From the NCBI GenBank assembly GCA_965205865.1, contig CBDBHR010000030.1:1191866-1255865 (forward strand): a stretch of DNA of 64,000 bases, given 5' to 3'. The notes below the pieces were generated by a model. That model had not been told where the DNA came from. It worked only from the letters and a program-made list of their open reading frames with translations, and made no database searches. The translations under genes were made by a program, and so were the position numbers. Of the stretch, positions 5,524-39,448 are shown piece by piece. This DNA comes from a bacterium (lineage in GTDB: Bacteria > SAR324 > NAC60-12). Numbering within the stretch: position 1 is the stretch's first letter; each line of letters opens with the position of its first letter.

Positions 5524-7254
5524 CTAGAAGCCCATTTCCTTTTTGAGGTCTTGATCAATCCAGATGCGGGCATACACGGGGCCTTCTCGCATCAATCCCA
5601 GGAGGATTTCACCATCAAAACCGCCAATGTAAGGATGCCAGACTTGAAAATTCGCATGGGGCAGCAGCGACACTTGATAATGCTGTTCGGTCCAACGCCG
5701 GGTGACCGCCTTCATGGCTTTGACAAAGTCCTCATGAGTCTTGGCGTTGATTGCGGCGTCCATCAAAATTTCCATGGTGGGATCTTTCAATAAGTTATAG
5801 ATGCAACAGGAGGTGGTTCTGGGATCGAATTGCAGCGTTGCCCACAAGAGCGGGTCAATATTCACTGCGGCCCAACCGTAGTGGAGTTCATAACCTGCAC
5901 GGGTTTCGGAGATCATCGTCCAAAAATCCCCCCACTCCATCTCGATGATCTCGGCCTCAATGCCAATCTCGCGAAGATAGCCCGTAGCGATCTGGACGAT
6001 GTTCCAATCCTGTTCCTGCCGCGCGGCATGGATGGTGGTCTTGAATCCGTTGGGGTAGCCCGCATCGGCCAGGAGCCGCTTGGCTCCTTCCGGGTTGTAC
6101 TCATAAGCTTCCCGGATATGCTTCGGCATCTCACTCAAGGGAGTAAAAAATTCCGCAGCTGATTCTCCCAGGGCCGGATAGATGATAGGAGGCACATGCC
6201 CCTGGTAATATTCCGAGGACATCTCCTCGTAATTCATGGCCATCTGCATCGCTTTACGGACCCTTTGGTCGGCCCAGGGATGGTTCGGATCGTCAAACAA
6301 ATACCCGATTGCCCAGGATTCCAAAACCCAGCTCTTCACCTGAATGTCCGGGTGGGTCTTTTTGAGCAGATTAAATTCCTCAATGTTGAGCGCAGCGATG
6401 TTGCCTTTGCCAATATGGTCGACCTGACCGGTGCGAATCGCAGCCATGCGGGTGGCTGTCTCTTTGATGATCAGCCAGCGGACTTGATCCAAAAAGGGCA
6501 GCTTGTACTGTGGATCCAATTCATAGCTTCCCCAGTAGTCCGGATTTTTCTCCCAGGTGACCGAACTGCCTTCTTGATAATCTTTGAGCATCCAGGCCCC
6601 TGTGCCGACTTGTTCTTTCCAATCGGTCAAGTCACCATGTTCTTTCGGGAAGATTTTGTCCGCATTAGACTGCGTGAGAAAAGTATTTTCGAGATGGATG
6701 CTGGGCTTATGCTTGATGACCACCGTATACTCATCTCTGGCCTCAACAGATTTGATACCATAGGGATCCCACGTTTGTCCTCCCTTGGAAGCTTCCGTAA
6801 AACCCGACCCTAGCCCCAGGAGCCGGTGAAAGGAGTAGACGACGTCCTTCGCCGTCATTTCTCTTCCATTGGTCGGGGGTCTGTTATGAAAGTGAATCCC
6901 TTTGCGCAGGTAAAACACCATGGTTTCAGGATCTTCTATTTCATAACGTTCGGCCACCCAAGTGGTACCGCACGCCTTGACCGAATAGTCTATCGTCCAG
7001 GGACACTGATCGCGGGGTTTGCTCCAGTCGCCAAAACCGAGTTGCTCATAGACATAGCTGGGTTGCGGGTTTAAATCAATGTGCGGATCCCAACTGGTGA
7101 TGGTATGGCCCACCGTGGTGAACGTCCCTCCATATTGAGGAGTCTTTGTGGCCATCTTCTGGCCCAAAGTGAAAGTGGGGAAGATCAACAGGATCACCCC
7201 CAATGCAATGAAACCATAAATTCGTTTGAACATGAAATTTTTCAGTACAGACAT
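5524..7254 (-). CDS. ABC transporter substrate-binding protein, family 5 (peptide/nickel/opine type), cluster 1
   Basis: Signal peptide, 576 aa. Shares the QYGGTF, KAMQMA and C-terminal WIDQDLKKEMGF signature with the two other SBP paralogs in the window. Confidence 0.85.
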   Translation of the reverse strand: MSVLKNFMFKRIYGFIALGVILLIFPTFTLGQKMATKTPQYGGTFTTVGHTITSWDPHIDLNPQPSYVYEQLGFGDWSKPRDQCPWTIDYSVKACGTTWVAERYEIEDPETMVFYLRKGIHFHNRPPTNGREMTAKDVVYSFHRLLGLGSGFTEASKGGQTWDPYGIKSVEARDEYTVVIKHKPSIHLENTFLTQSNADKIFPKEHGDLTDWKEQVGTGAWMLKDYQEGSSVTWEKNPDYWGSYELDPQYKLPFLDQVRWLIIKETATRMAAIRTGQVDHIGKGNIAALNIEEFNLLKKTHPDIQVKSWVLESWAIGYLFDDPNHPWADQRVRKAMQMAMNYEEMSSEYYQGHVPPIIYPALGESAAEFFTPLSEMPKHIREAYEYNPEGAKRLLADAGYPNGFKTTIHAARQEQDWNIVQIATGYLREIGIEAEIIEMEWGDFWTMISETRAGYELHYGWAAVNIDPLLWATLQFDPRTTSCCIYNLLKDPTMEILMDAAINAKTHEDFVKAMKAVTRRWTEQHYQVSLLPHANFQVWHPYIGGFDGEILLGLMREGPVYARIWIDQDLKKEMGF

Positions 7255-7306
7255 AGCTTACTCCTTAATGTAATAAATTATTAGATACTCCTCGTCCTTC
7301 AGCAAT

Positions 7307-7505
7307 GAAGAATTCGGCAAAATCAAGAATTAAAAATTCCCAAAAACCTTCCCCTTTTCTCTGGGGAACGGAGATAAATTACCTCAACTAAAAGGTGGGC
7401 TTCAAGAAAAAAAGAAGAATTCGGCAAAATCAAGAATTAAAAATTCCCAAAAACCTTCCCCCTTTTCTCTGGGGAACGGGGATAAAGTACCCCAACTAAA
7501 GAGAG
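7307..7505. repeat. Tandem direct repeat, ~107-bp unit x2, in the divergent intergenic region
   Basis: gaagaattcggcaaaatcaagaattaaaaattcccaaaaaccttcccc(c)ttttctctggggaacgg.gataaa.tacc.caactaaa occurs at 7307-7395 and again at 7414-7502. Confidence 0.8.
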
Positions 7506-7678
7506 ATGTCAAAAAAAAAAAGAGGGAATTGGGATTGACTATTTTCTTTGATGATTTTATAAAAAAAATTGAATGGGACACCGCCCATCCCCCTTGAAGG
7601 AGTTGGGGGCCGTCTCACTCAAAGATTTCAACATATTCTAGTAAAAGTCAGCAGATACAACCATACAAGGAGAAAACA

Positions 7679-8530
7679 ATGACAGAAAACACAGGGAGAC
7701 TGGCCGGAAAAGTCGCAATTGTCACAGGTGGTAATAGTGGCATGGGGGCTGGTACCGTAGAATTATTTGTGAAAGAAGGCGCCCGTGTGGCAATTGCGGC
7801 CCGGGGAGAGGAAGCCGGACTATCCCTGGCGCATCGGCTTGGGGATAATGCGATATTTCATCGCACCGATGTCTCTGATGAAACGAGTGTGAAATCGCTG
7901 GTCGAAGTAACCATGGCCAAGTGGGGAAGGGTGGATGCGCTGTTCAACAATGCTGGGATTGGGCAGAAACACGTCCCGGTGGAAGAATTCACGATGGAGG
8001 ATTTCGAGACGCTCTTTAAAATCAATCTAGCCTCTTGTTACCTCGGCATCAAATACGCTGCACCAATTATGAAACAGCAAGGCAGGGGCAGCATTATCAA
8101 CAACGGCAGCACCGCCGGGGTTACCACCGATGGTTCGGGCCCCCTCTATAGCGGTACCAAAGCCGCAGTGATCCATATGACAAAGGTCTGGGCGGTCGAA
8201 TTAGCCGAACATGGTATCCGGGTCAATTGCATTTCTCCGGGGGCGGTCGTCACCCCGATCTTTTGGGGCGGGCATCATACTCAATCTGATGAAGAAAACG
8301 CCACTCGGGCGCAACGGCTTACCAAATTTTTTGATGAGAATGTAGGGCTCAAACGAGCAGGCACCCCGGAAGACATTGCCTACGCCGCCTTGTATTTAGC
8401 CAGTGATGAGAGCCTTCACACCACAGGTCTCAATTTGCGTGTGGATTCCGGATTGACGTGCCACAATCGCCCCTGGCAAGACCTTATGGAACGTAGGCGA
8501 AGGATTGCTCAACAAATCGAAGAGGAGTAA
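7679..8530 (+). CDS. SDR-family short-chain dehydrogenase/reductase
   Basis: TGGNSGMG Rossmann motif, NNAG, and the YSGTK catalytic Y-x3-K. Confidence 0.85.
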   Translation: MTENTGRLAGKVAIVTGGNSGMGAGTVELFVKEGARVAIAARGEEAGLSLAHRLGDNAIFHRTDVSDETSVKSLVEVTMAKWGRVDALFNNAGIGQKHVPVEEFTMEDFETLFKINLASCYLGIKYAAPIMKQQGRGSIINNGSTAGVTTDGSGPLYSGTKAAVIHMTKVWAVELAEHGIRVNCISPGAVVTPIFWGGHHTQSDEENATRAQRLTKFFDENVGLKRAGTPEDIAYAALYLASDESLHTTGLNLRVDSGLTCHNRPWQDLMERRRRIAQQIEEE

Positions 8531-11033: not shown

Positions 11034-12503
11034 ATGATGCGAACAATCGCAATCCATAGAAAAGGTAGATTGGGAGTTCGGCCCCGAAGAAACAATCGGT
11101 TCGTAGGTTTTTTCGGAGTGGCTCTTGTACTGGCAGGGTGCGTTAATGTACAGCCTGAAGGTTCCCACAGGCCGCAGAGGGAGTGGGAAATGCCGCAAGT
11201 TCCCATCACGGTGGAGTCGAAACCTCTCAGGGTGGATACTCGTCCCTGCACCGGTTCATTTATTCCTCGTTATTTGTCTCATGACACCCTCGCAACTTCC
11301 GGCCTGTATGGCTATGTAAAAAGCATCACCCGTGGAATGTCCGGTCGCATTGGATTTTATCTGAGCAATGGGGCAGGTGTGGCATTGGCAGACCTGGACA
11401 ACGATGGTTTCATCGATATAGTCTTACCGGGGTTGCATGCGCCGACCAGCATTTACTGGAACCTGGGGGGGATGAAATTTCGATACGAGCAGCTGGACGC
11501 AAAATTCGCACGGGCGGTCAACGTGGTCGATGTGGATGGCGATGGTTTGCCAGACTTGGTATTCACTCATGTGGCAGGCCCGCCCTCGTTGTGGCGTGCT
11601 GGTGCCGGAGCATCAGGACCGGCATATACGCGTCTTTCAGATGATGAATTCCGCGGCGCCTTCAATCTCTATGCGATCGCTTGGGCGGATTTGGATGAGG
11701 ATGGAGATCTCGATATGGTAGGGGCTTCCTATGATTCGGAACTCAATCAACAAGGTCGCGGTTCAGGTGGGGTGTTCCTCTACATGAATGACGGTGGTGT
11801 TCTCACGCCTTTCCGTCTTTCCACCAATGCCACTGCCCTTGCTCTGATCCTCACTGATCTCAATGGGGATAGACGTCGCGACATCCTGGTAGGCAACGAC
11901 TTCCATCCGGCTGATGAAGTGCTTTTCAACACGCCCGAAGGCTGGATCAATGCGACTCCCTTCACCAGCACCACCACCAATACGATGAGCTTTGCGGAAG
12001 GAGACATCGATAACGATGGGATCCCGGAACTGCTGGCTACCGATATGAAGCCCTACCGTCAGGATGAAGCCATTGCGCATGCTTGGGCTCCGATGCTGGA
12101 AAACGAGCAAGGTTTGGAACCGGGGGACGGGGTGCAAATCGTGGCCAATGTTCTACAATCTCGTGAGCAGGGAGGCTTGGAATTTGTGGATCGTGCTGAA
12201 GAAGTCGGCGTGGACGCCACCGGTTGGAGTTGGTCGGCCCAATTTGGAGATCTGGACAACGATGGATTCCTCGACCTCTATGTCGTCAATGGCATGATTG
12301 CCATCCAACTTTTTGAGCATTTACCCGGTGACGAGTTGGTAGAAGAGAACCAAGCCCTGCGCAACGACGGAACCGGTCATTTCGTACCAGCTCTAGTTAA
12401 ATATCATTTAAAAAAGATTCCCGGAGAGGATCGATCGTTTTCAAGTCCTCCCACGATATTGTTCAATCGATCGGGAACCCTCTCGTTCATTAAAACAACT
12501 TAG
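11034..12503 (+). CDS. FG-GAP/VCBS-repeat lipoprotein (ASPIC/UnbV-like)
   Basis: LAGC lipobox. Six or more DxDGDGxxD-type repeats (DLDNDGFIDIV, VDVDGDGLPDLV, DLDEDGDLDMV, DIDNDGIPELL, DLDNDGFLDLYV). The last ~30 codons are supplied by a dispersed repeat element (from 12411). Confidence 0.7.
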   Translation: MMRTIAIHRKGRLGVRPRRNNRFVGFFGVALVLAGCVNVQPEGSHRPQREWEMPQVPITVESKPLRVDTRPCTGSFIPRYLSHDTLATSGLYGYVKSITRGMSGRIGFYLSNGAGVALADLDNDGFIDIVLPGLHAPTSIYWNLGGMKFRYEQLDAKFARAVNVVDVDGDGLPDLVFTHVAGPPSLWRAGAGASGPAYTRLSDDEFRGAFNLYAIAWADLDEDGDLDMVGASYDSELNQQGRGSGGVFLYMNDGGVLTPFRLSTNATALALILTDLNGDRRRDILVGNDFHPADEVLFNTPEGWINATPFTSTTTNTMSFAEGDIDNDGIPELLATDMKPYRQDEAIAHAWAPMLENEQGLEPGDGVQIVANVLQSREQGGLEFVDRAEEVGVDATGWSWSAQFGDLDNDGFLDLYVVNGMIAIQLFEHLPGDELVEENQALRNDGTGHFVPALVKYHLKKIPGEDRSFSSPPTILFNRSGTLSFIKTT

Positions 12504-12900
12504 CAAAGGCATCATTCTATTACACAAAAACCCAATGTCAACCCCCCAAGGCAAAATAAATGCGGGATTCGCAAAAAAAATAAAAAATCAATAAATCTGC
12601 TCAAATCCGGGGACAGTCAGAAGCCGTTCAGTTCAATAACGTTGAAAAAAGATTCCCGAGGAGTATCCATCACTTCACTTCCTCCCGCACTTATTTTGAA
12701 TCGAACGGGCGGGAACCCTCCCAAGATTTTGTTCAATCGATCAAGCGGGAACCCTTTTCTTCCCTAAAACAACAAGGCATGATTTTAGTACAACAACTAA
12801 CAACGCAGCTTCAAGCCCCCAAAAAAAAAATAAGCGGAGTCCGCGAAAAAAATAAAAAAACCATGAAGGGATCGATTGTTTTTTTAAGTTAGTTGGTCAA
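12411..12900. repeat. Dispersed repeat family, two tandem ~230-270-bp units; an inverted copy set lies at 28863-29110
   Basis: Shared blocks: aaaaagattcccgg..., ttgttcaatcgatc..gggaaccct, ctaaaacaac...atgattttagta, and caaaaaaaataaaaaa. Reverse-complement matches occur at 28863-29110. Confidence 0.7.
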
Positions 12901-13129
12901 GGTTTGGAAGACAACTATGAAGAGAGCGGGGGTACGTTGACCTGAGGAATGAACAGTTGCTTTCATTGGAATTGAAGAGGTGATTCGAGAGGGAGTCTAT
13001 GAGATTCAGATCAAGTTCTCAAATGGATTTCTCTTGAAGAGATTCAGAGATATCTTGAAAACAAAAAAAGACTGAAACGAACCATTTTGAAGTTTCCGGA
13101 GACACTCAGAAAGGATTGGAGCGAGAAAC

Positions 13130-29110: not shown

Positions 29111-29602
29111 TTGCTATTCTTATGAACTCGAGAGTGACGAATTCTTGTCAGTCAATGAAATTAAAATCACTGACTGATACACATTCTCATTTCCGCGAAA
29201 GCGCATTGGATCAACTTAAGAGTCCGTATATTATTTCAGTTACTTGGAGTCAAAAATAGAATTCCACACCCCTGGAAAGATGGGCCAGGGGAGCGGGAAT
29301 CCGTAGTGTTTTCATAGGCTAATGAAGACTGGATCCCGCATCAAGTGCGGGATGACACGAGAATTCGTAACTCAAGAGCAATGAGAGTAGGCGCGATGAG
29401 ACGTAGAATCAATAGCAGGCAGTTAACTTCTGACAAAAGAGGAATTATGAAAGATAAAATCAAAAAAAATATCAATCAACTTCTGAAAAAGGAGAAATTA
29501 TGCGACATCCAATAAATCAAATCCAATTCACTTCTAATAAAGAAGAAGCAATGGAACATCCAAGGAATCTTAACCCAAATCAAAGTGAAAGAGGAGGAAT
29601 CA

Positions 29603-31359
29603 TGGAAAAAAGTATAACCAGAAAAATCAATTCATTGTTGTTGACCCTCATCCTGATGGTGACCGTCCTGTGGGTCGGGTCGGTCGTTGCTGCTGAGAAA
29701 GAGATGGTCACCGACCCCACCACCGGTAAAATGGTGAGCGCACCGGAGTATGGCGGGACATTCAGCTGGGGCGATGCGCTCGAGCCTCCGCACTGTGACC
29801 CCTACCTGCATGGCCATGGGCCAAGGGTCATCGATGAAGTTGGAGAGAAGCTGGGCCTCGGGAACTGGGCAGTAGATCGGGCCGAACATAGCTTTTCAGA
29901 CCCGTGGATCCCTTCCCATTTCATGACAGGGGCGCTGGCGGAAAGCTGGGAGATGGCTGACCCACTGACCTATGTCTTCCACATTCGCCAGGGCATTCGC
30001 TGGCACGACAAGGCGCCGATGAATGGTCGGAAGTTCATTGCCCAGGATGTCGTCTATAACTTTCACCGTTATACAGGTACGGGCAGCGGCTTCAGCGAAC
30101 CGAGCGCCGGTGCCGGCAATCTCGCCTCAATACCATTCGAATCGATAACGGCCAGAGACGATGCGACGGTTGTCTTCAAACTGACGAAGCCAAAGGTAGA
30201 CCTGCCTGACGTTCTCCTGGTCGACTGGTATGCGTGGATATTACCCCCTGAGGTCATCGAGCAGCATGGCGACCTGACGGACTGCGACAACATGGTCGGC
30301 ACCGGGCCCTATATGCTGACCGAATGGGTCAAGGGCAGCTCCCTGACCTATTCCAAGAATCCTGACTACTGGGACTTCGACGAAAAATACCCGCAGAACC
30401 GCTTACCCTACATCGACCAGATAAATCGGTTGATCATGCCGGATAAGGCAACATCGCTGGCGGCGCTGCGCTCGGCCAAGCTCGATTACGTCGGTCAGCC
30501 TGGCATCAATCAGTTACAAGCGTCCCAGGTAGAGAGCCTCGAGCGCACCAACCCCGAAATCGTAGTATGGCCGTGGGCCTTTCGGTCGGAGACCTCCGCT
30601 GCATTCAACGTGCGCCACCCGTCGCCCTTTCAAGACATCCGGGTGCGTAAGGCCATGCAGATGGCCATTGATATCGAAACCATTAACAAGACCTACTTTG
30701 GGGGCTTTGGAATGACGACGCCCCAAGGGATTATAGGGGATGGTCTGAAGGGGTACTTCGTCCCATTCGAAGAGTGGCCCGAAGAGACCAAGAACGTCTT
30801 TACTTATGACCCGGAAGGGGCGATGCGGCTTCTGGCTGAAGCGGGCTATCCCAATGGCTTCAAGGCCGTCCATAACCCTTTGCCCTCATGGGGGCTGGGC
30901 TATCAAGAGATAGTCGTTGAATACTGGGCTGCGATTGGCGTTGACGTAGAGATCAAGACGCATGAAGGCACTCAGTTGACGGGATTAATAACTGACGGTT
31001 CGTATGAAGGCATGACCTTTATGGATCTCGGCAATGACACCTCGCCTCCCTTGCTGCTAAACCGGCTTCAAATCGGGGCGGTGTGGGGCCGCACCGGACA
31101 CCAGGACCCCGTGATGCAGTCCAAGGTTGAAGCCGCTATGGCCGCTCCCACCCTCGAGGAGCAGCAGCGGCTGACCGCGGAGGCAGATTTGTACATGATC
31201 GAGCAGCATTGGTACATATGGGGTCCCAAAGTTCCCCAATTCGACGCGATCCAGCCGTGGGTGATAGGTTTCAACGGTGAAATCTTTGTTGGCAACTCAC
31301 ATGCGCCGTTCTCCCGTCTGTGGATCGATAGTGCGCTGAAGAAAGAAATGGGGCATTAG
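29603..31359 (+). CDS. ABC transporter substrate-binding protein, family 5 (cluster 2)
   Basis: GAGGAGG Shine-Dalgarno 6 nt upstream of the MEKS start; signal peptide; EYGGTF, KAMQMA and WIDSALKKEMGH signature. ~60% GC versus ~45% for the backbone. Confidence 0.85.
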
Positions 31360-31464
31360 GAGCTGTGTTAAAACCTTGTTCCCCCTCTCCTGGTGGGAGG
31401 CAGAGAAGCAGTTTGGCCACAGGCGTGGCCAGTAAAAACTACTGAACGCGGGAGGGGGCATCAT

Positions 31465-32421
31465 ATGAAAGCCTATCTCATCCGGCGGGTATTGCTGGTA
31501 ATCCCCACCCTGTTTATCCTGAGCATCCTGGTCTTTCTCTCGGTGCGCTTCATCCCCGGCGACGTCGTAGATGCCATGTTGGGTCAGCTGCAGTCGACAA
31601 TAGGGAGGATAGACCGTGCAGCCGTTGAGCGTCGGCTGGGACTGGACGTGCCGGTCTGGGAGCAGTATGGACGCTGGATCGGCCAGATTCTCCGGCATGG
31701 CAGCCTGGGCAAATCCCTGTGGGGCGAATGGACGGTAGAGGAGAGGATACTAGCTAGCCTGCCGATCACCCTTGAGCTTGGCGTCCTGGCCATCGTAATC
31801 GGGCTTGTGATCGCGCTGCCCGTGGGTATCTACTCGGCGATGCGCCAGGATACGGTCGGCGATTACGCGGGGCGTTCCCTGGCCATCATCGGCCTGGCCA
31901 CGCCGAACTTCTGGCTGGCCATTATGGTGATACTCTACCCGGCCATCTGGTGGGGCTGGACGCCGCCGATGCAGTGGGTTCCTTTCACCAAAGACCCGCT
32001 GGGGAATCTCGGGATATTCCTCATTCCCAGCGCGATTCTGGGGACAGCCATGGCCGCCGCCACCATGCGCATGACGCGCACTATGATGCTGGAGGTGCTC
32101 CGGCAGGACTATATCCGCACCGCTTGGTCCAAGGGCCTCAGGGAGCGGGTCGTGATTATCCGGCACACCATCAAAAATGCCCTCATCCCGGTGGTAACTC
32201 TGATCGGCCTGCAGTTGCCGATCCTGGTAGGGGGCGCGGTGATCATGGAGAATATCTTCAACCTGCCGGGACTCGGTCGTCTCATGCTGGATGCCCTGCA
32301 ACACCGGGACTACCCGGTGGTCCAGGGAACCAACCTGTTTTTCGCGACCGGGGTGGTGCTGCTCAATCTTTTGATCGACCTGATATATCCCTATTTGGAC
32401 CCCAGAGTCAGATATGAATAG
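31465..32421 (+). CDS. ABC transporter permease, DppB-like (cluster 2)
   Basis: MKAYLIRRVLLVIPT...MRMTRTMMLEVLRQDYIRTAWSKGL; Shine-Dalgarno GGAGGGGG. Confidence 0.85.
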   Translation: MKAYLIRRVLLVIPTLFILSILVFLSVRFIPGDVVDAMLGQLQSTIGRIDRAAVERRLGLDVPVWEQYGRWIGQILRHGSLGKSLWGEWTVEERILASLPITLELGVLAIVIGLVIALPVGIYSAMRQDTVGDYAGRSLAIIGLATPNFWLAIMVILYPAIWWGWTPPMQWVPFTKDPLGNLGIFLIPSAILGTAMAAATMRMTRTMMLEVLRQDYIRTAWSKGLRERVVIIRHTIKNALIPVVTLIGLQLPILVGGAVIMENIFNLPGLGRLMLDALQHRDYPVVQGTNLFFATGVVLLNLLIDLIYPYLDPRVRYE

Positions 32422-32464
32422 TCGTTATGCTTCTGGTAAATATAGGTTTGAGATTCGTCTGTCA

Positions 32465-32885
32465 GAAGTAGTCCCTGAGGGACGAAAGGAAGTAGCCCAG
32501 CGATTCATCGCTGGGAACAAAAGATAGTCTCCTTCAAAGTCCCGGAGGGACGATACAACAATGAGGTTTCATGTCCCATTCCTACATCAGCAATCATCTT
32601 CATGGTGTCTTTTGCGCAAAAAACCGAGTTGAGATGATGACTCCTGAAATCAAAAAGCGCCTTTTTCCTTATTTGACATCATGAGCGTTATATTTGGGAG
32701 TAACTCGCTGGATCGAAGAAGTGTCGTCCCTCCGGGACTAGCTGAGGAGGAGGGGGGTTCCTTTCCCAGCGATGAATCGCTGGGCTATTCCCTTTCGTCC
32801 CTCTGGGACTAGCTGAGGAGGGGGTTCCTTTCCCAGCGATGAATCGCTGGGCTATTCCCTTTCGTCCCTCCAGGACTGCATTATA
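32465..32885. repeat. Cluster of short hairpin repeats inserted between the two permease genes of cluster 2
   Basis: Hairpin cccagcgattcatcgctggg at 32496, and its reverse complement twice (32766, 32833) inside a tandem ~70-bp unit. Multiple gtccctNNgggac palindromes. Confidence 0.7.
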
Positions 32886-32899
32886 GAAAAATCGAGAAC

Positions 32900-33868
32900 A
32901 TGAGCGACAGCATAGAGACGCCATCCCCGATCATTGAGTCCAAGCGACGGGGCCGGTTTGTGGATTTCTTCATCAGGCTGATCAGGGAAAAGCCCCTCGG
33001 GACGTTTGGCGGGATAGTCACCTTGATCTTTATTTTGTTGGCGATCTTTGCCGAGCTTCTGGCGCCTTATCCCTATCGGGAAATACACCTGGCCGACATA
33101 CTAAAAGGCCCAGCCGCCCAGTATCTGCTGGGGACCGACCATTTGGGGCGAGACCTGTTGAGCCGCCTTCTCTACGGGGCTCGTATTTCCTTGACCGTCG
33201 GTCTGGCCGCGACGGTGCTGAATGTGGTGGTCGCTGTCCTGATTGGCGGCACTTCCGGATTCCTGGGGGGGAAAGTGGACCTGGCGGTGCAGCGCTTTGT
33301 CGATGCCTGGATGGCCTTCCCGGGGCTGCTCTTGTTGTTAACCATCATGTCCATCGTGGGACAAGGCCTCCTCCAGATCATCGTGGTGTTGGGGATTACC
33401 GGAGGTGTCGGCGGCTCCCGAGTCATCCGAGGCGCCGTGGTGGGCATCAAAGAGAATGACTATTTCCTGGCAGCCAGGGCCGTAGGCACTCCCACGCGCC
33501 ATATCCTGACCCGCCATGTGCTGCCCAATATTATGGCGCCCCTCATCATCATCTTCTCGATCAACATTGGCGGCGTAATCATCGCCGAGGCGTCGCTGAG
33601 CTTCCTGGGATTCGGGCTGCCCCTCAAGGTTCCCAGCTGGGGAGGAATGCTCAGCCGGGAAGGGCGGGAATTCATGGAGCGGGCGCCCCGGCTGGCGCTC
33701 TGGCCGGGGCTGTGCCTGACGATTGTCGTCTACTCTCTCAACATGTTCGGAGACGCCATGCGAGACCTGCTGGATCCCCGGCTGCGAGGCGGACAGGGAA
33801 GTTACGGCGCCACGGGGAAACGCAAACGAGGTCTCTTGGCCCGACTGATCAACCCTTTCAACTGGTAA
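32900..33868 (+). CDS. ABC transporter permease, DppC-like (cluster 2)
   Basis: LLGTDHLGRD, SLTVGL, GDAMRDLLDPRLRG. Confidence 0.85.
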   Translation: MSDSIETPSPIIESKRRGRFVDFFIRLIREKPLGTFGGIVTLIFILLAIFAELLAPYPYREIHLADILKGPAAQYLLGTDHLGRDLLSRLLYGARISLTVGLAATVLNVVVAVLIGGTSGFLGGKVDLAVQRFVDAWMAFPGLLLLLTIMSIVGQGLLQIIVVLGITGGVGGSRVIRGAVVGIKENDYFLAARAVGTPTRHILTRHVLPNIMAPLIIIFSINIGGVIIAEASLSFLGFGLPLKVPSWGGMLSREGREFMERAPRLALWPGLCLTIVVYSLNMFGDAMRDLLDPRLRGGQGSYGATGKRKRGLLARLINPFNW

Positions 33869-33931: not shown

Positions 33932-35386
33932 TTGAATATTAAAATGCGATCCCATATCTTGGTTCCTGTTCTCAACTCGAATCGATATCCTGCTTTGCCG
34001 GTCCTTCTTACAGATGCCATAGAAAATAAAATGAACTCTAATAAAGTCAGAGATTCGGTGGTTGCCCTTTTTACCTGCAAAGATCGTGTATTTGTCATCC
34101 AAAGGCAGTCTTATTTGACGGTTTTCCCCGGTTATCATTCATTTCCGGGAGGCAAAGTGGATCGGGAAGATTCGCATCAACCCTATGAGATTCGTTTTCT
34201 CCGTGACCACAAAGCCCAGATGATGCATGCCCTTTGTCGTGAAGTTGAAGAAGAATTGAATTTTGATTTGGCAGCCGCCATTTTAAGGGGTCAGGTCGAA
34301 CATTTTTCAAAATTCGGATATGCCATCACTCCTGTTTTCAATCCTGTTCGTTTCAATGCCCGATTTTATAGAATAGAACTGACCTCCCGGGTGGAATTCA
34401 ATGTGGACAGTAACGAAACGGCATGGGCGAGTTGGCTTTCTGCGCAGGATTTTATGAAGCAATACCAACAGGGACAGATTTTGGCTGCCGTTCCCACACT
34501 GCGCGTGATGGAGAGGTTGGCTGAAAATCCGAATGTCAATAATTTGGCAGAACTGCATTTGAGTTATGATCCGCAAAACGAAGTGCCTTGTATGCAGCCC
34601 GTCTATCAAGTAGTGCAGCTGCCGGTTCCATCGAATACTCTTCCTCCTGCGGAAAGCACGAATGCCTTCATTCTGGGCGATGATCATTGCGAGCGTTATC
34701 TGGTAGATCCTTCGCCGGCATCTCCGGAGGTGTTGGCACGTTTGCATCATGTGGTCCGTTCCTTCCGAATAACGGGTGTTTTTTTAACGCACCATCACCC
34801 GGATCATCATCAATTCTGCAACAAACTGGCCCGTGACTTTCAAGTTCCAATAAAAATGAGCCGGGATTCCTATGAACGGATTTGTAAGAAATTCGGCCAT
34901 GAATATTTTGACAAGCTTGAAATCCAGTTTGCTCAGGAAGGGGACATTCTCACTCAATGGCTGGGTAAAGATATCCAAATTTTTGAGATTCCAGGGCATG
35001 ATGAAGGGCAATTGGGGTTGGCGCCAACGACGATGGACTGGTTTCTGGTAGGAGATTTGATGCAGGGCGTCGGAACTGTCGTGATTGCAGCGCCGGAAGG
35101 AAATATGAAAAAATATTTTGCGTCCCTGGAGAAGGTCATCTCGTTGGACCCCAAGATCATCATTCCTTCTCATGGCATACCTCTGAGAACCACGTTGTAC
35201 CTCAAAAGAGCCCTGGAACATCGGCAGATGAGAGAGCGACAGATTCTACAACTTTACAAGGAGGGAAAATCAAAAGAGGAAATGTTGTCGACACTCTATC
35301 AGGATATCGACCCTCGATTACTGCAGGCAGCCTTGCGCAATATCGAATCCCATCTGGCAAAGCTGCAAACAGACCATTTGATTTGA
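33932..35386 (+). CDS. Fusion protein: N-terminal NUDIX hydrolase domain + C-terminal MBL-fold metallo-hydrolase domain
   Basis: Nudix box GGKVDREDSHQPYEIRFLRDHKAQMMHALCREVEEELN. MBL motif LTHHHPDHH plus downstream H/D ligands. The true start may be the internal MNSNK. Confidence 0.65.
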   Translation: MNIKMRSHILVPVLNSNRYPALPVLLTDAIENKMNSNKVRDSVVALFTCKDRVFVIQRQSYLTVFPGYHSFPGGKVDREDSHQPYEIRFLRDHKAQMMHALCREVEEELNFDLAAAILRGQVEHFSKFGYAITPVFNPVRFNARFYRIELTSRVEFNVDSNETAWASWLSAQDFMKQYQQGQILAAVPTLRVMERLAENPNVNNLAELHLSYDPQNEVPCMQPVYQVVQLPVPSNTLPPAESTNAFILGDDHCERYLVDPSPASPEVLARLHHVVRSFRITGVFLTHHHPDHHQFCNKLARDFQVPIKMSRDSYERICKKFGHEYFDKLEIQFAQEGDILTQWLGKDIQIFEIPGHDEGQLGLAPTTMDWFLVGDLMQGVGTVVIAAPEGNMKKYFASLEKVISLDPKIIIPSHGIPLRTTLYLKRALEHRQMRERQILQLYKEGKSKEEMLSTLYQDIDPRLLQAALRNIESHLAKLQTDHLI

Positions 35387-35491: not shown

Positions 35492-35875
35492 TTATGCCCG
35501 GAGTTGTTTTGTTAGAATCGTATTTTCCCTTTTCAAAACTCTGAATTGTTCATCGAGTGCTGCAATGACGCTATTTTTCATGTGCAGCAATTCCAGGAGG
35601 GTTTCATCACACTCTCCGACGCGCACCAAGGACGTGCTCACCACCATCTCTTCTCTTCCAGTCTCATACCAAGTCGGATTGAGCCCATATTTAATCTGCA
35701 TGAGCATGACGGTTTGTTGGGACGGGTTGCTTTCCCCCCGTTTGATCTTGTAGAGCGCCTGCACTGAAATACCGATATTGTCCGTAACCTTTGTGAGTGA
35801 ATATCCTTTATCTGATTTTAAATAATCAAGAAATTCAGAAAAGCGCTTCCTTTGCGCATTGGATCGAACCGTCAT
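35492..35875 (-). CDS. XRE-type HTH regulator with coiled-coil tail (paralog 1)
   Basis: LTKVTDNIGISVQALYKIKRGESNPSQQTVMLM fits a helix-turn-helix; about 60% identical to the N-terminus of the neighbouring ORF. Confidence 0.6.
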   Translation of the reverse strand: MTVRSNAQRKRFSEFLDYLKSDKGYSLTKVTDNIGISVQALYKIKRGESNPSQQTVMLMQIKYGLNPTWYETGREEMVVSTSLVRVGECDETLLELLHMKNSVIAALDEQFRVLKRENTILTKQLRA

Positions 35876-35941: not shown

Positions 35942-36619
35942 TCAGGAAGTTTTTCTATTTCGCGCGATCTTTTTTTCGAGTTCCTGCAGAAAATATTGGC
36001 GCAATCGCTCATCGACTTTTTTTGGAACCAGTTTTGTACCCCCGGCGATTATAGCGCTCAATGTTTTTTCCGGATTTTCTTCCGACACTATTTTTCCCTT
36101 GATCAGTAGCTTTTGGTCCATGGATAGTCCTGTTAACAATTTTTTTAATGCCAGTCCCGTCAGTCTTTCTTGGAGCAATTGTTTGTATTCATTGTATTTG
36201 GCCCGATTCAACTGGTTCACATTAACCGGCGCCTTTTGCCCAATTTTCTTTTGCATGATCGCATTTTTCTTTTTCAAGGACTCGTTTTGATGAGTTAACT
36301 CTTCAATCACATGATTCTTCATGCGGATCAATTCCATCAAAATCTCGTCCGAACGTTCAAGGAGACCCGAACCTTCCCTGACCTCCATCGTGCCTTGTCC
36401 GGTCTCGTACCAATTGGTATTCAATCCGTATTTGATCTTGAGTAACATAACGGTTTGTTTGGAAGGATTGATTTCTCCTCGTTTGATTTTGTAGAGTCCC
36501 TGTACCGAAATTCCGATGTTCTCAGCAACTTTAGAATAAGAAAATCCCTGATCTGATTTTAGATTCTCCAAAAATTCAGAGAACCTTCTTCTATGTAAGG
36601 CATCCCTATTAACACTCAT
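35942..36619 (-). CDS. XRE-type HTH regulator with extended coiled-coil C-terminus (paralog 2)
   Basis: The same HTH block (VAENIGISVQGLYKIKRGEINPSKQTVMLL) plus a ~120-aa K/E-rich tail. Confidence 0.6.
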   Translation of the reverse strand: MSVNRDALHRRRFSEFLENLKSDQGFSYSKVAENIGISVQGLYKIKRGEINPSKQTVMLLKIKYGLNTNWYETGQGTMEVREGSGLLERSDEILMELIRMKNHVIEELTHQNESLKKKNAIMQKKIGQKAPVNVNQLNRAKYNEYKQLLQERLTGLALKKLLTGLSMDQKLLIKGKIVSEENPEKTLSAIIAGGTKLVPKKVDERLRQYFLQELEKKIARNRKTS

Positions 36620-37090: not shown

Positions 37091-37702
37091 TTAAAGAATA
37101 TGCGAACTTTGTAGTAACGTAATACCGGCGGATTTCATTTCTTCCAGTGCGTTTTTCACGTCCCCTGAATTGAGATCGACTCCGCGCGTGCCGTCAGTGA
37201 TGAGATGAGTTTGATACCCCAAAGCCTGGGCATCCAATGCGGTGAATTTGACACAATAATCTGTCGCCAATCCCACCACATAAACCTCTGTCACACCTTT
37301 CTCTTTCAAATTCGAGTCCAGCCCGGTGGCGCTTTGGTGATCGTTGTCGAAAAATCCACTGTAGCTGTCGACGGTTTTTTTCATGCCTTTTTGGCATACG
37401 CAGGCAATTTTTGCCGTATTCAAACCTGCGATAAACGCTGCTCCTTCCGTGCCCTGCACACAATGCGCCGGCCACAGTATTTGTTCAATACCATGGAGCA
37501 TGATGATTTCCCCGGGTTCTTTGCCATGATGAACCGCAAAACTTTCATGGTCGGCAGGGTGCCAGTCCTGCGTTGCCACAACCAAGTCGAATGCGTTTTG
37601 CAATTGGTTGATCAAGGGAATGATTTGATCCCCTTGCGGAACTGGCAAGGCGCCACTCGGGGTAAAATCGTTTTGCAAGTCAACCAGGATCAATGCCCGC
37701 AT
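37091..37702 (-). CDS. pncA: Nicotinamidase/pyrazinamidase (isochorismatase family)
   Basis: LILVDLQNDF, the catalytic C in TDYCV, and K/D residues; 203 aa. Confidence 0.85.
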   Translation of the reverse strand: MRALILVDLQNDFTPSGALPVPQGDQIIPLINQLQNAFDLVVATQDWHPADHESFAVHHGKEPGEIIMLHGIEQILWPAHCVQGTEGAAFIAGLNTAKIACVCQKGMKKTVDSYSGFFDNDHQSATGLDSNLKEKGVTEVYVVGLATDYCVKFTALDAQALGYQTHLITDGTRGVDLNSGDVKNALEEMKSAGITLLQSSHIL

Positions 37703-37743: not shown

Positions 37744-37984
37744 TCGAGATAAAAATTTAATAAATTCAATATGTTATGGAATCTTCATATCTTAGAGAAA
37801 CCTTTTCATTCCTGCGAGATCCCTGCGTACGCAGGGAAGGAATCCGGAGGTATGCAGCCAGACTGAAATCCGGATCCCAGCTCCCCGCTTTCGCGAGGAC
37901 AAGTTTCGCGGGGACAAGTTTCGCGAGGATGACATATACACTAGGATACTCATATTATTGAAGATTTATGTCGAACTCAGGTTA
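37744..37984. mobile_element. MITE copy B (~241 bp)
   Basis: Same element as 36750-36985 in the opposite orientation, with a short internal duplication (gacaagtttcgcg x2). Confidence 0.8.
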
Positions 37985-39448
37985 ACAATAGTTTTCCCGG
38001 ATCTGAAGAATCAGTTGAGTTTTCAAATCAAAAAGGGATTTTTCAATCCCCACCGGATATTGATGGGGATTGACGAATCGCGCGATACCGGGATGAAACT
38101 GGCACAATCCTTGCCGTACCTTCTTTCTGATTTGTTGAATGGAAGGCGTAGTATACACTTTTTTTCCTTTTTTGAAAATAGGAATCAACAAGTCTTCGGA
38201 TTGCATACCTGCAGGAATTTTTCGCTGCCGGGTCATGTCTAAGGGATCGACGATGGTGCATCCCTTGCTCAAGTCCGAATGGATGTCAAAAATCACATCT
38301 GCGCTATTTTCCTGCTCTGTGCGATAACGTCGAACCTGTTGAACGCCGGGTGTCGTCACTTTCACGGCTTGTTCAGAGATTTTGACGCGATGTTCCCAGG
38401 ACTGGCCGGGCTCTCGGGTTGCCGCAAGTTTATAGACACCGTCTAATGCCGGCTGGTCATAGGCAGTAGCCAATTTTGTACCGACACCCCACATGTCGAT
38501 TTTTGCATTTTGGTTTTTCAAACTGGCAATGATGAATTCGTCCAATTCATTGCTGACGACAATTTTTGTATCGGAAAACCCATTTTCGTCCAGCATCTTT
38601 CGCGCTTCAATGCTCAGGTACGCCAAATCCCCCGAATCCAGTCGGATTCCCAACAATGGATAGCCCTGAGCTTTCAGCCAACGTCCGGTTGCAATGGCAT
38701 TTTTCACGCCTTGCAGAGAAGAATAGGTATCGACGATGAGTACGCAGTTATTGGGTGAGGATTCAGCATAAGTCTGAAAGGCTTCCGCCTCTCCCGCAAA
38801 GCTCATCACCCAACTATGGGCGATGGTTCCGACAACCGGAATGCCGAAATTTTTCCCTGCCAATACGTTTGAAGTCCCCGCGCACCCTCCGATAAAAGAT
38901 GCCCGGCTGACCGTTAAACCACCGTCCACTCCTTGCGCGCGTCGAAGCCCGAATTCCAGAACAGGATCGCCTTTTGCGGCCAGACAGACGCGCGCGGCTT
39001 TGGTGGCAATCAAAGTCTGAAAGTTGATGATATTGAGTAAAATGGTTTCCAGTATCTGGCACTGCGCAAGGGGCCCCTGCACCCGTATCAGGGGTTCATA
39101 GGGAAAGACCACCGTTCCTTCGGGAATTGCATCGACATCGCATTGGAAACGAAGGGTTTTCAGATAACGCAAAAAATCTCTATGAAAGAGGGCTTTCTCA
39201 TCAATGCCTTGCAAAGAAGCCAGGTAGTCGAGTTCTTCCTGTTCAAAGCAGAAATTGTCCAGTAATTCGATGACGTTTTCTAAACCGCAGACGATGCCGA
39301 ATCCTCCTTTAAAAGGAAGGGTTCTGAAAAATAAATGAAATACGCTTTCTTTGGAAGCAATGCCGCTTTTCCAGTACCCGTAAGCCATGGTGAGTTGATA
39401 GAGATCTGTCAAAAGAATAGAATAACGTGAAATTCCTGGAGCTGTCAT
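37982..39448 (-). CDS. pncB: Nicotinate phosphoribosyltransferase
   Basis: 488 aa; LTDLYQLTMAYGYW N-terminal signature of NAPRTase. Confidence 0.9.
   Translation of the reverse strand: MTAPGISRYSILLTDLYQLTMAYGYWKSGIASKESVFHLFFRTLPFKGGFGIVCGLENVIELLDNFCFEQEELDYLASLQGIDEKALFHRDFLRYLKTLRFQCDVDAIPEGTVVFPYEPLIRVQGPLAQCQILETILLNIINFQTLIATKAARVCLAAKGDPVLEFGLRRAQGVDGGLTVSRASFIGGCAGTSNVLAGKNFGIPVVGTIAHSWVMSFAGEAEAFQTYAESSPNNCVLIVDTYSSLQGVKNAIATGRWLKAQGYPLLGIRLDSGDLAYLSIEARKMLDENGFSDTKIVVSNELDEFIIASLKNQNAKIDMWGVGTKLATAYDQPALDGVYKLAATREPGQSWEHRVKISEQAVKVTTPGVQQVRRYRTEQENSADVIFDIHSDLSKGCTIVDPLDMTRQRKIPAGMQSEDLLIPIFKKGKKVYTTPSIQQIRKKVRQGLCQFHPGIARFVNPHQYPVGIEKSLFDLKTQLILQIRENYC

Follow-up and report, generated by a model that had tools for sequence, protein, structure and literature searches.

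A conserved two-enzyme module of NUDT19-like Nudix and LACTB2-like metallo-beta-lactamase domains, carried as a single fused protein in a SAR324 bacterium

We analyzed a 64,000-nucleotide stretch of DNA, referred to here as the window, from a bacterium of the SAR324 lineage (assembly GCA_965205865.1, contig CBDBHR010000030.1, positions 1,191,866 to 1,255,865 of the forward strand). The + strand of the window contains an uninterrupted open reading frame (ORF) at 33932-35386, which would encode 484 amino acids if translation began at TTG. The encoded protein joins a Nudix domain to a metallo-beta-lactamase (MBL) domain and a winged helix, and represents the fused version of a conserved module of two enzymes, which other bacteria encode as adjacent genes. 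Its features are listed below; residues are numbered throughout according to the 451-amino acid form that begins at the ATG at 34031, and conservation refers to 118 homologues of the fusion.

34031-35386, + strand: probable true coding sequence of the Nudix-MBL-winged-helix fusion (451 amino acids plus stop); homologues of about 450 amino acids begin at this methionine
33932-34030, + strand: in-frame upstream extension of 33 codons from TTG, probably untranslated
34046-34525, + strand: Nudix-fold domain, assigned to the NUDT19/3qsj subfamily (residues 6-165)
34103-34153, + strand: RQSYLTVFPGYHSFPGG (translation), matching R-x8-G-x3-FPGG, the core of the "NuCoA" motif of coenzyme A (CoA) pyrophosphatases
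34151-34264, + strand: interrupted Nudix box, with G41-x5-D47, a spacer of 22 residues (canonically 7), and R70-E71-V-E-E74-E75-L-N-F
34526-34630, + strand: structured inter-domain linker (residues 166-200)
34631-35194, + strand: MBL-fold domain, LACTB2-like (residues 201-388)
34790-34807, + strand: HHHPDH, an HxHxDH metal-binding motif (H254, H256, D258, H259), present in 118 of 118 homologues
34997-34999, 35054-35056, and 35171-35173, + strand: codons of the further metal ligands H323, D342, and H381, respectively, all invariant
35195-35383, + strand: long C-terminal helix and winged helix (BLACT_WH; residues 389-451), which align with the C-terminal domain of LACTB2 to its end
35219-35236, + strand: HRQMRE, an HRxxRE motif present in 118 of 118 homologues and equivalent to H216/R217 and R220 of LACTB2

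The N-terminal extension is called only in a relative that is 97% identical (P0001). Relatives that are 78% identical, as well as all others, begin at the equivalent of the ATG at 34031. Because the homologues begin at the methionine encoded there, this ATG is probably the true start and the protein likely comprises 451 amino acids. A preliminary description of this locus, made from the sequence of the window, had proposed that one ORF joins Nudix and MBL domains. This proposal is borne out: the frame is continuous, and the protein scores 30.0 bits for NUDIX, 43.5 bits for Lactamase_B, and 31.3 bits for BLACT_WH, each above the Pfam gathering cutoff (21.1, 22.7, and 22.8, respectively). The N-terminal region thus clears the threshold of the Nudix profile, and the motifs that had been quoted are present at 34151-34264 (GKVDRED...REVEEELNF) and 34790-34807 (HHHPDH).

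The fusion has more than 1,000 matches among database proteins. The best 120, most of them about 450 amino acids in length, align with 88-100% of the query and for the most part bear the same Pfam domains; a relative is encoded in at least 521 species-level reference genomes. We considered the possibility that the fusion is an artefact of assembly or annotation in which a missed stop codon or a frameshift merged two genes. The same two genes do occur separately in other lineages, but the frame is continuous, full-length fused homologues come from independent assemblies that represent several phyla, and confidence in the model is high across the conserved linker. An artefact is therefore excluded for practical purposes, since the full-length homologues are both widespread and independently assembled. 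A scan for promoters and terminators around the gene yielded nothing that exceeded the expectation from shuffled sequence.

Alignment of 20 diverse homologues revealed that the linker between the two domains is nearly free of insertions and deletions. An AlphaFold2 model of the 451 residues has a mean predicted local distance difference test (pLDDT) score of 95.7, with values mostly above 90 in the linker, and a whole-chain predicted template modelling (pTM) score of 0.92. The model suggests that the two domains pack together into a single body, which fits a tight coupling of the Nudix and MBL domains. Judging from their residues, both hydrolytic centers are intact: R70, E71, E74, and E75 of the Nudix domain are invariant, as are the MBL ligands H254, H256, D258, H259, H323, D342, and H381.

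The canonical Nudix box, GX5EX7REUXEEXGU, occurs in none of the 118 fusion-family members. All 118 contain an interrupted version, G-x5-[DE] followed by a spacer and RE-x2-EE. The spacer is 21-25 residues long in these proteins, 12-38 residues in stand-alone relatives, and 46-59 residues in NUDT19 (also known as RP2p), the mammalian peroxisomal acyl-CoA/CoA diphosphatase. NUDT19 has been reported to carry an insertion of 45-49 amino acids within its Nudix box (PMC12894707). Our comparisons with NUDT19 were all run on database proteins that bear this name, about 120 of which were retrieved as "acyl-CoA diphosphatase NUDT19"; a rodent NUDT19 sequence, about 90% identical to database entries, served only as a search query.

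Alignment of a NUDT19 profile with a profile of the fusion Nudix domain (hhalign) gave a probability of 95.8% and an E-value of 7.5e-9 over 155 columns, which span the whole domain, and placed the NUDT19 insertion at the same point of the Nudix box as the spacer of the fusion. When scored on one scale against the Nudix half, NUDT19 reached 42 bits, MutT 33 bits (over the N-terminal part only), the CoAse DR1184 17 bits, and NUDT7 14 bits; MutT was the best-scoring characterized Nudix protein in the PDB. Stand-alone bacterial relatives resembling PDB entry 3qsj scored up to 94 bits (E 1e-25) against the NUDT19 profile. The fusion Nudix domain and NUDT19 share three derived characters, namely a box interrupted at the same point, GX5D in place of GX5E, and the sequence R-x8-G-x3-FPGG; moreover, the C-terminal strand and helix specific to the NUDT19 family are matched in the fusion. 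The R-x8-G-x3-FPGG core is found in 117 of the 118 fusions, all 31 stand-alone bacterial relatives, and 11 of 12 NUDT19 orthologues. On this sequence evidence, we assign the Nudix half to the NUDT19/3qsj subfamily.

Despite homology over the whole Nudix domain, NUDT19 and the fusion have diverged considerably. The 42-bit score reflects low identity. NUDT19 not only has a longer spacer but also contains another insertion and extends at its C terminus by about 100 amino acids, and it lacks an MBL domain. The G-x3-FPGG core and the upstream arginine of the NuCoA motif are also found in the canonical CoA pyrophosphatases NudL, NUDT7, and DR1184. The protein in 3qsj, a structural genomics target from Alicyclobacillus acidocaldarius, is a stand-alone Nudix protein of about 230 amino acids with no known function (PMC5389931). 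The gene for its homologue in a related Alicyclobacillus genome follows MurT/GatD, not an MBL gene.

The closest characterized relative of the other half of the protein is human LACTB2, a mitochondrial endoribonuclease (PDB 4ad9). LACTB2 was the best match in the PDB with phmmer (E 4e-16, compared with about 1e-5 for GloB) and with Foldseek (E 1.4e-15), where it was followed by TTHA1429, uncharacterized Burkholderia MBL proteins, PqsE, and GloB. It has the same arrangement of MBL and BLACT_WH domains and all metal ligands, and its H216, R217, and R220 correspond to the invariant H397, R398, and R401 of the fusion, but its N116 and E118 are not conserved. Unlike the fusion, to which it is about 23% identical, LACTB2 lacks a Nudix domain. 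Sequence and predicted fold together thus identify the MBL-winged-helix half as LACTB2-like. Glyoxalase II was rejected as its identity: the GloB model (TIGR03413) is the best NCBIfam match of the MBL half, yet its score of 45.3 bits is far short of the cutoff, 200.8. GloB, PqsE (which acts on 2-aminobenzoylacetyl-CoA), and MBLAC2 resemble the fusion in their glyoxalase-II-type MBL fold and metal site, but the C-terminal domains of these thioesterases are unlike that of the fusion. The PqsE and GloB families are thioesterases. LACTB2 has been grouped with human MBL proteins that include glyoxalase II and the acyl-CoA hydrolase MBLAC2 (PMC7949124). It contains a predicted type 1 peroxisomal targeting signal (PTS1) and has been detected in peroxisome proteomics, which would place it in the compartment of NUDT19 (PMC8919083).

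The two enzymes also occur as separate proteins. Database searches returned 928 matches to stand-alone members of the NUDT19-like Nudix subfamily. At two Actinomycetota loci (L085 and L087), such a Nudix gene is followed by a separate gene that encodes Lactamase_B and BLACT_WH domains according to Pfam; the two genes overlap by 4 bp in one locus and are separated by 3 bp in the other. Sequence comparison shows homology between the MBL-winged-helix partner of the split pair and the MBL half of the fusion (E 6e-28). When metagenomes were scanned with stand-alone Nudix sequences as seeds, 80 loci were recovered, in which fused and split forms were told apart by a test of reading frames and stop codons. 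An MBL-winged-helix gene lies immediately downstream on the same strand in 35 loci (split), the two domains are fused in 9, no MBL gene is adjacent in 18, and the downstream sequence is too short to judge in 17; the remaining locus had no + strand Nudix match upon re-analysis. The pair is thus present in 44 of the 62 informative loci (71%). Many split pairs show stop/start overlaps of 4 bp or 1 bp, and a distant clade of fused proteins shares only 29% identity with the protein encoded in the window. Classes assigned by an ORF caller were discarded owing to spurious antisense ORFs in contigs of high GC content.

Because 44 of 62 loci are paired and a clade with only 29% identity is fused as well, the conserved unit is the two-enzyme module, of which the window holds the fused form. 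Fused or translationally coupled, the Nudix/LACTB2-type pair occurs in SAR324, Bdellovibrionota, Nevskiales, Desulfuromonadales, Acidobacteriota, and Actinomycetota. Fusion and coupling across phyla provide strong comparative evidence for a shared substrate or pathway. An alternative is that the halves are two independent, co-expressed house-cleaning activities with no common substrate, such as a MutT-like diphosphatase and a glyoxalase-II-like thioesterase. The N-terminal half of the Nudix domain indeed resembles MutT/NudG sequences, GloB is the nearest NCBIfam model for the MBL half, neighborhoods are heterogeneous across lineages, and genes for HD-domain phosphohydrolases recur nearby. Nevertheless, the GloB score falls far below its cutoff, the pairing is too consistent (including fusion in at least two clades as divergent as those described above), and the rigid arrangement of the two domains, modelled with confidence, suggests that they function as a unit. 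We therefore regard independent activities as improbable.

Unbiased clustering of neighboring genes was noisy in the metagenome loci, and only clusters confirmed by Pfam are considered here. Longer stand-alone NUDT19-like Nudix proteins (about 285-305 amino acids, no adjacent MBL gene) have a gene of the RidA/YjgF family just upstream in 17-18 metagenome loci, for example at 4768-5340 of L125. The order of genes in both L085 and L087 is NuoD-like (Complex1_49kDa), Methyltransf_28, Nudix, MBL-winged-helix, and a Crp-type regulator, with a UvrD/PD-(D/E)XK helicase gene near; the lone NuoD-like gene beside an NDUFAF7-like methyltransferase gene is odd. In the distant fused clade, a gene for a phosphohydrolase with HD and HD_assoc_2 domains overlaps the start of the fusion gene by 4 bp (4649-5956 in L143 and 2890-4224 in L150), which suggests a three-enzyme HD-Nudix-MBL operon.

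Beyond the pair itself, gene context varies by lineage and splits between acyl-CoA and RNA metabolism. At 31 loci of the Bacteriovoracales type, the upstream gene encodes a protein of about 1,133 amino acids described as a member of the fused alpha/beta indolepyruvate:ferredoxin oxidoreductase (IOR) family. This gene is directly adjacent to the fusion gene in 26 of the 31, mostly with overlaps of 4 or 8 bp (-4 or -8), and genes for HPPD and acetyl-CoA synthetase lie near. The next gene in the SAR324 locus L002 encodes the (hydroxy)phenylacetyl-CoA thioesterase PaaI, which scores above its NCBIfam cutoff. At 17 SAR324 loci, the fusion gene is followed by the gene for RNase R, mostly with a 4-bp overlap indicative of translational coupling, and preceded by a DUF3799 PD-(D/E)XK gene. 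Genes encoding NYN, ExoX-like, and beta-CASP proteins lie near the fusion in some lineages. The neighbors are unrelated to any of these in Desulfuromonadales, Nevskiales, Sedimenticola, and Geothermobacter.

NUDT19 hydrolyzes CoA and CoA esters (PMC12894707; PMC7337524). We tentatively favor a two-step breakdown in which the Nudix and MBL halves act in sequence on one acyl-CoA; we infer both what the substrate is and which reaction comes first from the comparisons above. The shared substrate of the two sites would be a nucleotide conjugate of the CoA type; an acyl-CoA, for instance an arylacetyl-CoA, is the likeliest candidate. The Nudix site would cut the diphosphate to produce 3',5'-ADP and acyl-4'-phosphopantetheine, and the MBL site would then hydrolyze the thioester, releasing the acid and reusable 4'-phosphopantetheine. 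The two steps might also proceed in the reverse order. Such a protein could serve to clear unwanted or dead-end acyl-CoA. A two-step nucleotide or phosphodiester cleavage had been suggested in the preliminary description, which pointed to NAD-derived nucleotides such as ADP-ribose and NADH. Coupled hydrolysis in two steps is reasonable because both sites are invariant in the homologues, and it agrees with the presence of two intact centers in one chain and of coupled neighbors elsewhere; the kind of substrate that had been suggested is not supported, as described below.

The principal rival to an acyl-CoA substrate is RNA decay that depends on the 5' end. In this model, the Nudix half would remove a cap, the LACTB2-like half would cut the exposed RNA endonucleolytically, and RNase R would degrade the fragments. 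The cap might be dephospho-CoA (dpCoA), another nucleotide-metabolite cap, or a triphosphate, and the fusion would act as a one-protein analogue of the Bacillus enzymes RppH and RNase J, a Nudix pyrophosphohydrolase and an MBL-fold RNase that act in sequence on one RNA. The resemblance to RppH and RNase J is one of functional analogy only. NUDT19 decaps RNA bearing dpCoA or 7-methylguanosine (m7G) caps in vitro, and bacteria are known to contain RNA with dpCoA caps (PMC7337524).

Several observations weigh against acyl-CoA as the substrate, and some of them favor RNA. Cleavage of single-stranded RNA is the only activity that has been demonstrated for LACTB2, the closest characterized relative of the MBL-winged-helix half. 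LACTB2 loses its RNase activity when mutated to H216A::R217T or to R220T (PMC4770246), and the equivalents of these residues are invariant in the HRxxRE motif of the fusions. The coupled RNase R gene at most of the 17 SAR324 loci, together with the DUF3799 gene upstream, points in the same direction. So do the operon at L086, in which a stand-alone Nudix gene follows genes for TopA, RNase R, and an S41 peptidase, the RNB gene situated 2-4 kb from the fusion in the distant fused clade, and the NYN, ExoX-like, and beta-CASP neighbors. The IOR-like partner scores 338 bits against an NCBIfam cutoff of 816 and is restricted to one lineage, and many lineages have no gene related to acyl-CoA in the vicinity. 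The Nudix half contributes further points. The NuCoA motif is defined as LLTxR[SA]x3Rx3Gx3FPGG upstream of the Nudix box, and this strict form is found in 0 of the 118 fusion homologues. The canonical CoA pyrophosphatases are no nearer to the Nudix half than MutT-type enzymes by either fold or sequence, and the NCBIfam model for NudL matches it weakly (18.6 bits; cutoff, 134; E 1e-3).

Set against RNA decay, the link to RNase R takes the form of an operon in just two lineages, being loose in a third, and the winged helix is the only candidate RNA-binding domain. Two other residues that LACTB2 requires for RNase activity, N116 and E118 (PMC4770246), align with a variable loop in the fusions and are not conserved. 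The physiological role of NUDT19 lies in CoA metabolism, and in other lineages the genes that form operons with the fusion are those for enzymes of acyl-CoA metabolism (IOR and PaaI). We rank acyl-CoA narrowly above RNA because of this role of NUDT19 and the two independent arylacetyl-CoA contexts; the RNA model appears somewhat unlikely, although it is a serious contender.

The roles of the module's human relatives are understood only in part. For LACTB2, RNA cleavage is the one activity that has been reported, and the insertion within the Nudix box of NUDT19 has no known function. The fused protein and the split operon may act as a Rosetta stone for these enzymes. It is possible, if speculative, that NUDT19-type and LACTB2-type proteins share a pathway, which would consist of either the hydrolysis of acyl-4'-phosphopantetheine or the decapping and endonucleolytic cleavage of CoA-capped RNA. 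In the first case, LACTB2-type MBL proteins would supply the hydrolase that has been missing for acyl-4'-phosphopantetheine, which Nudix action on acyl-CoA would otherwise leave as a dead end, and human LACTB2 would gain a role in CoA recycling beside or instead of its role as an RNase. In the second, the module would be a dedicated decapping-plus-endonuclease system for bacterial CoA-capped RNA. The individual domains are well known already; the value of the pairing lies in the lead that it gives on human LACTB2 and NUDT19 and in a corrected view of the relationship to pncA and pncB, two genes that lie downstream in the window.

Our literature searches found no direct study of a Nudix-MBL fusion, of thioesterase activity in LACTB2, or of a functional link between LACTB2 and NUDT19. 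The preliminary description had called the fusion something other than a standard annotation, which is accurate in that no paper characterizing it was found, but databases do label the protein, in generic terms such as "MBL fold metallo-hydrolase", "endoribonuclease LACTB2", and "glyoxylase-like.../MutT". The fusion is neither glyoxalase II nor MutT. A stand-alone Nudix protein of 214 amino acids (P0167) has been named "endoribonuclease LACTB2" by JGI; it seems to have inherited this name from fused proteins, an instance of the spread of an annotation error.

Four genes on the - strand downstream of the fusion bear on its proposed connection to NAD metabolism.

35492-35875 and 35942-36619, - strand: two paralogous HTH_3 (XRE-type) genes between the fusion gene and pncA
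37091-37702, - strand: pncA (NCBIfam equivalog, 261 bits; cutoff, 174)
37982-39448, - strand: pncB (NCBIfam equivalog, 604 bits; cutoff, 469)

The context of the fusion gene had been described correctly: a cluster of ATP-binding cassette (ABC) transporter genes ends at 33868, and pncA and pncB lie 1.7 kb downstream on the opposite strand. From this proximity, a link to NAD salvage and a role for the Nudix domain in the hydrolysis of ADP-ribose or NADH had been proposed. In this scenario, the fusion would work with PncA and PncB on a nucleotide derived from NAD (ADP-ribose, NADH, or a 2',3'-cyclic nucleotide monophosphate). Both genes are genuine, and pncA abuts the fusion gene in a relative that is 78% identical (L004). 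However, when 83 related loci were searched with the PncA and PncB proteins of the window, the genes lay within 10 kb of the fusion in only two, L001 (97% identical) and L004; they are absent from relatives below 78% identity, and neighbors already differ in SAR324 L002 (64% identity) and beyond. In addition, pncA and pncB are transcribed convergently with the fusion gene and therefore share no transcript with it.

The sequence of the Nudix half likewise argues against this role. The marker of NudC is SQPWPFPxS, and that of ADP-ribose pyrophosphatases is a conserved proline about 15-16 residues past the Nudix box. The former is found in 0 of the 118 fusion homologues, and a proline at +15/+16 is not conserved among them. 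The closest characterized Nudix protein is the acyl-CoA diphosphatase NUDT19. We conclude that the proximity of pncA and pncB is coincidental and has no functional meaning for the fusion, and we consider an enzyme of NAD-derived nucleotides very improbable. The one other NAD-related neighbor that we noticed, and a point in favor of such an enzyme, is a gene for a SIR2-family NAD-dependent deacylase about 5 kb from the fusion in two loci of the Desulfuromonadales type (L168 and L169, about 12200-13040).

The ABC cluster (29500-33868) comprises genes for an SBP_bac_5 solute-binding protein and two permeases, which are not followed by ATPase genes. Its GC content is 0.55-0.59, compared with about 0.45 in the flanks, and the whole cluster is missing from L004. 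It looks like a recent insertion in the lineage of the window. Because a gene for an M16 peptidase directly upstream and pncA directly downstream flank the fusion gene in L004, both the ABC cluster and the two HTH_3 genes are best regarded as insertions in this lineage. An apparent permease neighbor of the fusion in L037 and L055 had raised the possibility of a link to ABC transporters; Pfam identified the upstream genes as those for valyl-tRNA synthetase (ValRS) and DNA ligase, and the link did not recur. The HTH_3 genes, which L004 lacks, are found downstream of the fusion gene in L001 and, at 55-73% identity, in SAR324 L002. L001 also contains a HicA/HicB toxin-antitoxin pair (7209-7795) between the ABC cluster and the fusion gene, where the window has a short spacer.

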